Shown: positions 43,830-44,748 of the stretch, in pieces | Layout of the letters: each line of letters opens with the position of its first letter | Numbering within the stretch: the stretch's first letter is position 1 | Assembly (NCBI RefSeq): GCF_003334355.1 | Contig: NZ_QOWP01000002.1 | Origin: Escherichia coli | GTDB lineage: Bacteria > Pseudomonadota > Gammaproteobacteria > Enterobacterales > Enterobacteriaceae | DNA: 64,000 bases | Direction: 5' to 3' (one strand) | The notes under the pieces: model-generated | Database searches by the model: none | What the model saw: only the letters and a program-made list of their open reading frames with translations | What the model was told of the DNA's origin: nothing | Program-made: the position numbers and the translations under genes

Positions 43830-44748
43830 ATATTATCACTTACTGGCGGCTCATACTGAGCTGGTTAATGCTGTGCACACACAAACAAGCAATTCCATTT
43901 GTAATGTGCCTCCCTGGCAGTTTCATCCGGAACCCGGACGAAAGTAAAAATGCATATGAGTTGCACTAAAAAAGCGACTCACATTGTTCCGTTATAATGC
44001 CTGAAGTAGATCACAGAATATATCTTCAGGGATCGCATATCTATTAAGTTACTCACTCTTTTCTATTTATGACATGCGCGTGTTTGTATAAATGTAAATG
44101 TGAGTCCTTGTTCCACTCTCGTGCAGCATCGCTGGTCATACGCGAACACGTACAAACAGCAATGGTGAGGCGGCATCAAGAGCAGGGATCCGTCATTTAT
44201 GCGAGCATTTTACCCCAAAAACCTTTTATTTATAAGGGTCATTGCGAATTATCTGATGCAAAGTTATGTTATGTTAGGCAAAGTAATCTTCTATTATTAA
44301 TAAGCACATCAAAACCTTTTTGAATATTAAATAATAATTAATTAGCATCATCCTCATTCATTAATTCCGCTTAACAATAGTTTCACACCTTGCCCCCATT
44401 ACGACACCTCGGAAATCATCACGCTGTTAAACTCTCCGTAATGCGGAAATATCATCATCGCGTTTCATTAGTGAATTCTTAAATGAGGCATTTTCACACA
44501 ATTATCTTACAGATAAAAAAACCAGACTTACAATTAAGAATCAGAACAATTCACTATATAACATTGCATGTAAAGCATATACACCTCATTATTTTGTCAT
44601 TATTAAGTTATTAACAGCACAATCGAGCCTTCCCCTCTGGCAAAATCTTATTCTGCAGACCTTCAAAACACCGTCCTGGGGGAGTACATTGTTCTAAGCT
44701 GACTTCCACGGCAGGGAGTGGCGATAACAGCAAAAAAGGTCAAGATTC

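Follow-up and report, generated by a model that had tools for sequence, protein, structure and literature searches.

The lrhA-alaA gap of Escherichia coli: a conserved divergent regulatory region with a long lrhA leader

The lrhA-alaA gap and its conservation

The window analyzed here is a 64,000-nt stretch of Escherichia coli DNA (assembly GCF_003334355.1, contig NZ_QOWP01000002.1), and its positions 43830-44748 make up the 919-nt intergenic region between lrhA and alaA on the E. coli chromosome. The lrhA start codon ends at 43829 on the minus strand, and alaA begins at 44749. The gap was present in all 5426 of 5426 complete E. coli genomes, always flanked by lrhA and alaA, and RefSeq lists no annotated feature inside it. 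The first-pass annotation had described a 919-nt spacer between divergent lrhA and alaA as the longest non-coding stretch in the window, and both the coordinates and the coverage by annotated K-12 coding sequences (CDS) agree with this. The next longest stretches outside K-12 annotated CDS measure 630 nt (nuoA-lrhA) and 338 nt. The region had also been called extremely AT-rich. Its GC content was 38.3% versus 51.0% for the window, and the description suits the central ~460 bp, where 200-nt windows reached 30-35% GC and the inter-promoter segment had 33% GC. It does not suit the lrhA leader part (42.6% GC), nor does it set the gap apart, as two further intergenic regions in the window are similarly AT-rich overall (39.0% and 37.9% GC). 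Direct, inverted, and tandem repeats were searched for within the gap, and none was noteworthy.

For the comparative analysis, the sequence of the window was aligned with those of 78 other Enterobacteriaceae species, giving 79 sequences in total. Of the 80 species loci compared, 78 had the divergent lrhA-alaA arrangement; their gap lengths ranged from 764 to 1013 nt and their GC contents from 0.35 to 0.44. Within the alignment, four conserved blocks are separated by poorly conserved DNA. The distance between the two promoters had a median of 461, and the alaA -10 element lay 52-59 nt from the ATG in the 79 sequences. A large AT-rich divergent spacer also occurs in Erwinia, Proteus, and Xenorhabdus. 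Taken as a whole, the gap is very probably a conserved divergent regulatory region in four parts (lrhA 5' UTR, divergent control region, alaA promoter-like element, and alaA leader) and holds no separate RNA or protein gene. It is real and conserved, yet ordinary and largely described already. The coordinates of all features are summarized in Table 1.

Table 1. Features of the lrhA-alaA gap in window coordinates; negative positions are relative to lrhA.
Feature	Position	Strand	Remarks
lrhA 5' untranslated leader (5' UTR)	43830-44200	minus	published, 371 nt; from +1 at 44200 to position -1 at 43830
UhpU pairing core CGCCAGU	43842-43848 (-19 to -13)	minus	adjoins the ribosome-binding region; placement in the window from this analysis
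CACAGCA box	43869-43875 (-46 to -40)	minus	CACAGC kept in at least 90% of 79 sequences
Mapped RNA 3' end, -50	43879 (K-12 2406691)	minus	Term-seq, Adams et al., 'upstream ORF -50 lrhA'
Motif GGAAUUGCUU	43887-43896 (-67 to -58)	minus	conserved in the 79-sequence alignment; in the proximal block
84-codon ORF	44069-44323	plus	spurious; antisense to the lrhA promoter and to leader nt 1-132
Mapped RNA 3' ends, leader nt 80 and 86	44115-44121 (K-12 2406933, 2406927)	minus	Term-seq, three condition lists
Divergent control region, 461 bp	44201-44661		spacer of both promoters, 33% GC; lrhA promoter and upstream blocks
lrhA core promoter	44207-44235	minus	-10 TAAAAT 44212-44207; -35-region TTATAA 44235-44230; 17-nt spacer
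Upstream promoter element ATCAGATAATTCGCAAT	44238-44260 (~-40 to -60)	lrhA-sense	alignment; candidate transcription-factor site
Second upstream block	44310-44389 (~-110 to -190 from the lrhA start)		mean identity 0.52-0.68
Predicted alaA core promoter	44662-44690	plus	alignment; TTCAAA 44662-67, 17-nt spacer, TACATT 44685-90
alaA leader, ~52 nt	~44697-44748	plus	predicted; conserved hairpin at its start
Stem-loop or DNA palindrome GCUGACUUCC-ACGGCA-GGGAGUGGC	44698-44722	plus	predicted alaA mRNA 5' end
alaA Shine-Dalgarno core AAGG	44736-44739	plus	conserved columns; ends 9 nt before the ATG

The lrhA leader and its control by sRNAs and Hfq

The long lrhA 5' leader, for which the spacer had been thought to offer room, is already known in the literature: a 5' UTR of 371 nt was published (PMC10578931). 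The +1 was located in the window via the cloning primer SM079 of that work, the lrhA part of which opens with ATAAATGACGG and equals the minus strand from 44200. The conserved -10 element TAAAAT lies 6 nt upstream of this position. Counted from the aligned start site, the leader measured 333-463 nt among the 79 sequences. Its proximal block (43830-43909) is conserved, with a mean identity of 0.62-0.70, and the distal leader (43910-44200, ~290 nt) is poorly conserved (0.20-0.44). For the distal part, length and Hfq contact are the roles that the picture proposed here covers. Compared with shuffled sequences, folding of the complete leader of E. coli gave z = -2.48, and its first 95 nt fold unusually well (z = -2.98). 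In the alignment, the strong 5' hairpin was not kept in other species, close relatives included, and the idea of a conserved leader structure was dropped for this reason.

Three sRNAs, UhpU, ArcZ, and RprA, were reported to repress lrhA, the latter two on the basis of reporter assays (PMC10578931). In the same work, the mutation UhpU-M1 (ACTGGTG to ACTCGTG) abolished the repression, and the compensatory lrhA-M1 (GCCGCCAGT to GCCGCGAGT) brought it back. By matching the mutant oligonucleotides to our sequence, lrhA-M1 was identified as a change of C-16 to G at 43845. A duplex-energy scan of the leader in 24-nt windows for ArcZ, RprA, McaS, and UhpU sites gave best energies no better than those of shuffled leaders. 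The UhpU site was placed via the published mutant oligonucleotides instead. Within 816 E. albertii genomes, the UhpU-lrhA site was identical according to the paper on UhpU evolution. RIL-seq chimeras link sRNAs to the lrhA leader as well, and the sRNA with the highest number of them is McaS, which binds lrhA without repressing it; the authors suggested 'McaS inhibition' as a possibility (PMC10578931). In MAPS with RprA, lrhA was enriched 744-fold and the mRNA decayed, and published RIL-seq and MAPS data together place both RprA and McaS on the lrhA leader. The conserved CACAGCA box is complementary to UGCUGUG, which occurs in both of these sRNAs, and judged by this complementarity it is a candidate site at which RprA and McaS could both pair. 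At leader nt ~133-144, the ARN-rich stretch AAU AGA AAA GAG is possibly an Hfq distal-face site.

Contact with Hfq itself was described by Bilusic et al., who co-immunoprecipitated 'ig-lrhA-alaA' RNA with bands of 150 and 350 nt. The 1.5-kb full-length lrhA RNA was detected only in the hfq mutant, and the Hfq-bound leader fragments were 'virtually undetectable in total RNA'. With a start hundreds of nucleotides upstream and pairing confirmed by a compensatory mutation, the leader has the marks of a long 5' UTR regulated by Hfq and sRNAs. In the resulting picture, lrhA transcription begins 371 nt ahead of the start codon, as published, and the long leader binds Hfq and acts as a landing pad for sRNAs. 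UhpU pairs near the ribosome-binding region and thereby represses translation, as the published compensatory mutation shows. ArcZ and RprA repress lrhA too, as shown with the reporters and the RprA pull-down, and McaS binds with no repression. In the wild type, Hfq holds full-length lrhA mRNA low while leader fragments build up.

The reach of this wiring appears to be restricted. Neither GGAAUUGCUU nor CACAGC nor the lrhA promoter string was recognizable in Erwinia, Proteus, or Xenorhabdus. As the leader motifs could not be recognized in these three distant genera, the sRNA wiring is likely lineage-specific, a view also taken in the paper on UhpU evolution.

The lrhA promoter and the central control DNA

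At the lrhA promoter, a string CTTATAAATA...TTTnGGnTAAnAT recurs throughout the alignment, and the block 44210-44249 reached a mean identity of 0.68-0.73. The -35 region matches only 3 of 6 consensus positions, and the conserved CTTATAAATA may therefore be an activator site instead of a -35 element. The upstream promoter element and the second upstream block, the latter including TGTGAAAnnAnTGTTAAG and AATTAATTATTATTTAATATT, are probably transcription-factor sites for lrhA, judging from their conservation. Three independent natural IS1 insertions were located in or beside the second block (44361-69, 44363-71, and 44282-90). A mini-IS5 was also found inserted at a TTAA site in the central AT-rich DNA. 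Insertions of the IS1 and IS5 type are common in AT-rich DNA.

Published genome-wide binding data cover this region. Shimada et al. found RpoD holoenzyme SELEX peaks in the '920 bp-long lrhA-alaA' spacer, and ChIP of OmpR and of Lrp showed binding at the lrhA-alaA control region. As in a type-A divergent spacer, promoter elements stand on both sides, and RNA polymerase, OmpR, and Lrp are all reported to bind. The 461 bp between the promoters would accordingly serve as protein-binding control DNA for these factors. For E. coli, overexpression of lrhA was reported to result from an insertion in the alaA-lrhA spacer. In Serratia, transposon insertions in the orthologous spacer were interpreted as raising pigU because deletion of pigU reversed their effect.

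The alaA promoter and leader hairpin

On the opposite side, TTCAAA-17-TACATT is probably the alaA promoter, as its conservation suggests, with a start at about 44696-44698. Most of the 79 sequences carry TTCAAA unaltered and some have TTCTAA; TACATT is invariant save for column 13, where A occurs in 90% or more of them; and the spacer between them varies in sequence and is gapless in all 79. The same element was found in Erwinia and Xenorhabdus. A search of the Cappable-seq and SMRT-Cappable-seq supplements for the alaA start site returned no matching entries. Shimada et al. predicted another alaA promoter, TTAAGA-17-TATAAC (44534-44562 in the window), which would make the hairpin described below internal to the transcript.

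The predicted alaA mRNA would open with a stem-loop that begins at 44698, right at the start expected from the conserved -10 element (44696-44698). In its core CCACGGCAGG, 8 of 10 columns are invariant among 76 distinct sequences and the other 2 are conserved at 90% or more. In the bulged model, 91.6% of cells were paired versus 30-74% with slid partners, and the pair 34-51 was AU in 49, GC in 14, and GU in 10 cases. The outer stem requires two different registers depending on the clade, and a small number of events may account for the changes. As a single sequence, the hairpin folds unexceptionally (z = +0.4). A variant occurs in Erwinia, and the hairpin is absent from Xenorhabdus and Proteus; no other copies of the motif were found in the window. 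We propose that alaA is transcribed from TTCAAA-17-TACATT to give a ~52-nt leader that opens with this conserved hairpin, which would most likely act as an mRNA 5'-end stabilizer, or else as a protein or operator site. A riboswitch or leader-peptide attenuator was also considered for the alaA leader and rejected, as there was no Rfam match and the ~52 nt contain neither an ORF nor a U-tract.

Alternative readings of the gap

With 919 nt of space and many short ORFs on both strands, the gap could in principle hide a small protein missed by the annotation or a separate small RNA gene, both of which the first-pass annotation had brought up. We regard this as highly improbable. The 84-codon ORF encodes 6 Cys and has no Shine-Dalgarno match within 25 nt upstream; among the 78 species, the start codon is preserved in 14 and the complete ORF in none, E. 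albertii included, which bears out the earlier judgement that it is spurious. When 30 ORFs of at least 10 codons were followed through the 79-sequence alignment, the most widely preserved one was intact in 12 of the 78 species and the majority in 0-3, and a small protein conserved over the 78 species was thus not found among them. An Rfam 15 scan of 42000-46200 (E <= 1) gave no match within 43830-44748 and three chance-level matches, all outside the gap. The scan for intrinsic terminators found none inside the gap, its sole match lying in the alaA CDS. A consensus promoter scan yielded 3 promoter-like matches against 3.3 expected; it missed both conserved promoters and is therefore uninformative here. 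In the Term-seq tables of Adams et al., no plus-strand 3' ends were found in the gap and none outside the lrhA leader, all listed ends being on the minus strand. Outside the leaders, the only conserved sequence or structure in the 79-sequence alignment consists of promoter-proximal DNA blocks, and just the unconserved stretches 43910-44200 and 44390-44630 would remain as room for a gene. An independent sRNA, or a small protein of at least 10 codons, in the gap is hence not supported, and the transcriptome data reached show essentially the lrhA and alaA leaders with no independent transcript.

The leader fragments bound by Hfq are stable and derive from the lrhA promoter, and they raise a different question. 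The mapped 3' end at 43879 delimits a leader fragment of ~322 nt, in agreement with the band of ~350 nt that Bilusic et al. saw bound to Hfq, and the ends at leader nt 80 and 86 delimit a 5' fragment of 80-86 nt. Such fragments might act as decoys or sponges for sRNAs (McaS, ArcZ) or as a 5'-UTR-derived sRNA on other mRNAs. The enrichment of the leader interval by Hfq with its two bands points this way, as do the recurrence of the discrete 3' ends (nt 80/86 and -50) between Term-seq condition lists, the lead of McaS among the RIL-seq chimeras with lrhA despite the lack of repression, the 'McaS inhibition' raised by the authors, and the well-folded first 95 nt in E. coli. However, the fragments hardly appear in total RNA, and conservation of the 5' hairpin and of the distal sequence does not even extend to E. 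albertii or to the Escherichia clade genome. No U-tract follows the ends at nt 80 and 86, which are thus not an intrinsic terminator, and the 3' ends may be decay intermediates of turnover triggered by sRNAs and Hfq. Moreover, neither fragment contains the validated UhpU site or the CACAGCA box, both of which are located downstream of -50. We therefore consider a decoy function unlikely. If it did exist, lrhA would be both target and regulator in the ArcZ/RprA/McaS/UhpU network.

For the central AT-rich DNA, the first-pass annotation proposed phased A/T tracts and hence curved, nucleoid-protein-bound DNA, and intrinsic curvature with silencing or organization by H-NS-type proteins would be the corresponding explanation. 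The low GC content of 30-35% over 44200-44700, which is conserved between genera, is consistent with it, as are the binding of Lrp, a nucleoid-associated regulator, at lrhA and the repeated insertion of IS1 and mini-IS5. Against it, the power of AA/TT periodicity at 10-11.25 bp did not exceed that of dinucleotide-preserving shuffles in the gap, core, or leader; the observed power was reached by fractions of 0.94 (whole gap), 0.41 (core), and 0.40 (leader) of the shuffles. A/T tracts of at least 4 nt numbered 14, compared with 13.1 +/- 2.5 expected from composition. Neither the phasing nor the curvature derived from it was thus borne out. The lrhA/alaA row in the table of Shimada et al. is blank for H-NS, whereas adjacent rows carry 'HNS'. 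The flanking genes are expressed core housekeeping and regulatory genes with conserved promoter elements and not silenced foreign DNA. Altogether, curved DNA under H-NS-type control seems quite improbable. Nucleoid-protein binding holds in the general sense of the published Lrp, OmpR, and RNA polymerase binding, and it is the H-NS part that finds no entry in that table. The preferred reading remains that of a divergent regulatory region in four parts.

Significance and comparison with related systems

In E. coli and its relatives, LrhA ranks close to the top of the hierarchies for motility, fimbriae, RpoS, and CRISPR-Cas, which makes the DNA and RNA controlling its level important. LrhA is reportedly subject to autoregulation and to Rcs control. 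The literature already covers the long leader and its dependence on Hfq, its repression by the sRNAs UhpU, ArcZ, and RprA, and the length and multi-factor nature of the spacer. This work adds a coordinate-level map of the gap and evidence for an architecture shared by 79 Enterobacteriaceae sequences, whereas most of the leader sequence is not conserved: kept are the leader length, the inter-promoter distance, the alaA promoter, and the alaA hairpin. Further additions are a conservation-based alaA promoter that differs from the prediction of Shimada et al., and the recurrent natural IS1 insertions just upstream of the lrhA promoter. These additions leave the existing picture of the lrhA-alaA gap unchanged, and the long gap is explained.

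The leaders of rpoS, csgD, and flhDC offer the closest comparison for that of lrhA. All of them start far upstream, are bound by Hfq, and are the point where several sRNAs converge; the genes concern top-level regulators of motility, biofilm, and stress, and pairing near the ribosome-binding site represses. The leaders of rpoS, csgD, and flhDC are ~567 nt, ~148 nt, and ~198 nt long, respectively. ArcZ and RprA act on both the rpoS and the lrhA leader; however, they repress lrhA and activate rpoS, in which they open up an inhibitory hairpin. The lrhA leader further differs in that only its last ~80 nt are conserved in sequence across genera, with the length conserved, and in that one of its binders, McaS, has no measured effect.

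As a divergent spacer, the region was classed by Shimada et al. with csgD-csgB and nanC-fimB among the long type-A spacers, which hold many transcription-factor sites. Like lrhA-alaA, csgD-csgB (755 bp) and nanC-fimB (~1.46 kb) have divergent promoters with hundreds of AT-rich base pairs between them. In contrast to these, ~40% of the lrhA-alaA spacer is transcribed leader and not upstream DNA, the partner alaA is a housekeeping aminotransferase gene of a different pathway, and the H-NS flag is missing in Shimada's data set. The same divergent gene pair with a large spacer occurs as alaA-pigU in Serratia and with hexA in Pectobacterium and pecT in Dickeya, and expression of the LysR regulator goes up with spacer insertions in E. 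coli and, by interpretation, likewise in Serratia.

Two minor features, the stable lrhA leader fragments and the alaA 5' hairpin, may be undescribed so far. A real and unpublished regulatory function for one or both, as sRNA decoys from the lrhA leader (nt 1-80/86 and ~1-322) or as a regulator site at the alaA hairpin, is a tentative idea that we think rather unlikely. The alaA hairpin resembles the stabilizing 5' hairpin of ompA in that it is predicted ~0-2 nt from the probable mRNA 5' end, and, like this type, it is conserved, with some changes in the stem that may be compensatory. It differs in that the loop ACGGCA is conserved too, with 4 of 6 positions invariant and 2 at 90% or more. This loop conservation points to sequence-specific recognition or a DNA operator over a purely structural cap. 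If this is true, the hairpin, present in Enterobacteriaceae and Erwinia with its near-invariant loop, could be the recognition site of a so far undescribed regulator of alanine synthesis that binds RNA or DNA.

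Extent and composition of the intergenic region

The lrhA-alaA intergenic region (positions 43830-44748 of the window) is real and conserved but explained: approximately 40% of it is lrhA leader, 50% divergent control region, and 10% alaA promoter and leader. It was matched in 5426 of 5426 complete E. coli genomes of the collection at 90-100% identity, chromosomal in every case, and differed from K-12 MG1655 at five positions. Its first base, window position 43830, falls at 2406642 of NC_000913.3. The K-12 annotation has lrhA (b2289) on the minus strand to one side, alaA (b2290) on the plus strand to the other, and zero features in between. 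When all K-12 coding sequences of the region were mapped onto the window, the longest uncovered stretches were lrhA-alaA (919 nt), nuoA-lrhA (630 nt), and one of 338 nt. The coordinates in the first-pass annotation were exact, and its claim that this is the longest non-coding stretch holds.

The GC content is 38.3%, compared with 51.0% for the window, and is uneven: 42.6% in the lrhA leader, 33% in the 461 bp between both promoters, and as low as 30.5% in 200-nt windows. Two other intergenic regions of the window are comparably AT-rich overall (39.0% and 37.9% GC). The phased A/T tracts originally described did not stand up to analysis, as AA/TT periodicity at 10-11.25 bp stayed within the range of dinucleotide-preserving shuffles, both in the gap as a whole and in its core and leader taken separately, and the 14 tracts of at least 4 nt lie at expectation (13.1 ± 2.5). 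Unlike this gap, the second-longest one between nuoA and lrhA (42261-42890, 39% GC) contains A/T tracts in excess (19, 13.4 ± 2.4 expected).

The lrhA leader

In the primer for the PBAD-lrhA-lacZ fusion of Melamed et al. (PMC10578931), the lrhA portion starts with ATAAATGACGGATCCCTGCT, which equals the minus strand from window 44200, exactly 371 nt ahead of the lrhA ATG. A long lrhA leader, one of the options raised at first pass, is right and already published. In the alignment with 78 other Enterobacteriaceae species, the promoter string CTTATAAATA...TTTnGGnTAA(A/G)AT was kept with fixed spacing.

As a meeting point of Hfq and sRNAs, the leader is already known. An lrhA-lacZ translational fusion is repressed by UhpU; a single-nucleotide mutation removes this repression, and the compensatory one brings it back (Melamed et al., PMC10578931). 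From the published mutant oligonucleotides, the pairing was placed at CGCCAGU, -19 to -13 relative to the ATG (window 43848-43842), the mutated C being -16 (43845). ArcZ and RprA repress lrhA as well, while McaS forms the most RIL-seq chimeras with lrhA, yet has no effect (PMC10578931). Furthermore, lrhA was enriched 744-fold in an RprA pull-down, and its mRNA was lowered by RprA overexpression. In the Hfq co-immunoprecipitates of Bilusic et al., RNA from ahead of lrhA, named 'ig-lrhA-alaA', was enriched, with bands of 150 and 350 nt; a full-length RNA of approximately 1.5 kb was detectable only in an hfq mutant, and the authors concluded that the fragments originate from the lrhA 5' UTR.

Nearly invariant in the proximal leader are GGAAUUGCUU (-67 to -58), CACAGC (-46 to -41), and GUAAGUGA. 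CACAGCA is complementary to UGCUGUG, which is common to RprA and McaS; since energy scans for sRNA sites in the leader failed to separate real sites from shuffled controls, we only infer from this complementarity a candidate common pairing site of both sRNAs. The whole E. coli leader folds better than shuffles (z = -2.48), and its strong 5' hairpin is not retained in other species (mean z -0.49), E. albertii included. In the distal leader of approximately 290 nt, the secondary structure predicted for E. coli is not shared by the other species, yet leader length is kept in the 79 sequences (the window and 78 species).

Coordinates of features in and around the lrhA-alaA intergenic region
Feature	Window position	Strand	Remarks
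Proximal lrhA leader	43830-43909		Mean identity to E. coli 0.62-0.70
Term-seq 3' end (Adams et al.)	43879	minus	K-12 2406691; -50
Distal lrhA leader	43910-44200		Mean identity 0.20-0.44
Term-seq 3' ends (Adams et al.)	44121 / 44115	minus	K-12 2406933 / 2406927; leader nt 80 / 86
lrhA core promoter	44210-44249		Mean identity 0.68-0.73
lrhA -10 hexamer TAAAAT	44212-44207	minus	6 nt upstream of start site
lrhA -35 region TTATAA		minus	17 nt above -10; only 3/6 consensus positions matched
Upstream element ATCAGATAATTCGCAAT	44238-44260		Conserved in alignment
Further upstream block	44310-44389		Conserved in alignment; mean identity 0.52-0.68
Unconserved spacer	44390-44630		Mean identity 0.22-0.41
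alaA-proximal block	44650-44748		Mean identity 0.63-0.84
Hairpin GCUGACUUCC-ACGGCA-GGGAGUGGC	44698-44722		Directly at inferred alaA mRNA 5' end
IS1 target site, locus L092	44027-44035		9 bp, distinct
IS1 target site, locus L091	44282-44290		9 bp, distinct
IS1 target site, locus L090	44361-44369		9 bp, distinct
IS1 target site, locus L088	44363-44371		9 bp, distinct

Search for hidden genes

The first-pass annotation had also allowed for an independent small RNA or a small protein, and neither option found support. An Rfam search gave zero matches within the gap, a repeat search of the gap returned nothing notable, and in the Term-seq data tabulated by Adams et al. the gap has no 3' ends, plus or minus strand, other than those in the lrhA leader, none of which (nt 80, nt 86, -50) is followed by a U-tract. 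The 84-codon ORF (44069-44323, plus strand; six Cys) is spurious, as suspected from the start: no Shine-Dalgarno match lies upstream, and it is intact in 0 of 78 species, with the start codon retained in 14. Among 30 ORFs of at least 10 codons on both strands, none was intact in more than 12 of the 78 species.

Downstream of lrhA, a perfect bidirectional terminator hairpin, GCCGCTGGGG...CCCCAGCGGC, with flanks of A8 and T6-8, was observed at 42806-42860. The 'primary' lrhA 3' end in Term-seq (K-12 2405672-3, window ~42860) lies upstream of this hairpin, 31 nt past the stop codon. Term-seq also lists a strong minus-strand 3' end that precedes the nuoA start by 10 nt (K-12 2405082).

Divergent control region and predicted alaA promoter

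One genome per species was scanned with LrhA, resulting in 80 loci. In 78 of these, alaA lies divergently upstream of lrhA, with a spacer of 764-1013 nt and a GC content of 0.35-0.44. The identities in the table come from a MAFFT alignment. Spacing is kept even where sequence diverges: across the 79 sequences, the lrhA leader measures 333-463 nt, between the alaA -35 and the point where lrhA transcription starts there are 342-470 nt (median 461), and the alaA -10 lies 52-59 nt from the ATG. In Budvicia aquatica (L097 1016-2407), a brnQ-like gene for a branched-chain amino-acid transporter (Branch_AA_trans family) lies between the LysR regulator and alaA, whose product is called with an N-terminal extension of ~95 residues, the start being probably mis-called.

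LrhA autoregulation, Rcs control of lrhA, and Lrp-mediated control of alaA were reportedly described by Lehnen et al. in 2002, Peterson et al. in 2006, and Kim, Schneider and Reitzer in 2010, respectively. Shimada et al. named the '920 bp-long lrhA-alaA' spacer among the long type-A spacers holding many transcription-factor sites and found RpoD holoenzyme peaks in it; the corresponding row of their table carries no H-NS flag. Kroner et al. placed lrhA among the targets that Lrp activates directly. In the orthologous alaA-pigU spacer of Serratia, transposon insertions alter CRISPR-Cas and secondary metabolism, which the authors ascribed to raised pigU because a pigU deletion reverses the effect; the same paper cites an E. 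coli alaA-lrhA spacer insertion that overexpresses lrhA.

At the alaA end, TTCAAA (44662-44667) is present in most of the 79 sequences and TTCTAA in a minority. The 17 spacer nucleotides that follow differ in sequence but align gap-free in every one of them. Behind the spacer, GAGTACATT, holding the -10 hexamer TACATT (44685-44690), is invariant bar one position conserved in at least 90%. This pattern is a classic sigma-70 promoter signature, with a predicted start site near 44696-44698 and hence a putative leader of ~52 nt. Shimada et al. predicted another alaA promoter, TTAAGA-17-TATAAC (44534-44562), which sits in unconserved DNA.

Of the ten columns in the hairpin core CCACGGCAGG, eight do not vary across 76 distinct sequences and two are conserved at ≥90%. 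In a bulged nine-pair model, 91.6% of cells are paired, compared with 30-74% when the partners are slid by one to three columns; one pair varies (AU 49, GC 14, GU 10), leaving only two sequences unpaired. The outer stem differs in register between clades, and folding of the single sequence gave an unremarkable z of +0.4. Outside the Enterobacteriaceae set, Erwinia pyrifoliae has the promoter element and a variant form of the hairpin, Xenorhabdus hominickii has the promoter element only, and Proteus has neither. We read the hairpin as a conserved, putatively 5'-terminal element that may stabilise the RNA, be recognised by a protein on the RNA, or serve as an operator in the DNA.

Natural insertions and a deletion

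At least nine complete E. coli genomes carry IS1 in a gap otherwise 100% identical to the window. Four of these insertions were mapped, and each has one of two orientations. Three are located 80-170 bp upstream of where lrhA transcription starts; the fourth interrupts the leader and comes from a strain in which lrhA is frameshifted as well. The pattern suggests that lrhA expression has been rewired repeatedly, possibly under selection. Strain 24AR0357 (L093 702-810) carries an insert of ~109 bp at window TTAA 44427-44430, with TTAA duplicated on its flanks and terminal inverted repeats GGAAGGTGCGAATAAG / CTTATTCGCACCTTCC; the insert resembles an IS5-derived miniature element (MITE). In the complete genome NZ_CP144928.1 (L089), an IS1/ISKpn26-associated deletion from elaD to window 44581 (20138-44581 missing) takes out yfbK-yfbP, the entire nuo operon, and lrhA, together with the gap except for its final 167 bp next to alaA, in which the conserved alaA promoter and hairpin are still present.
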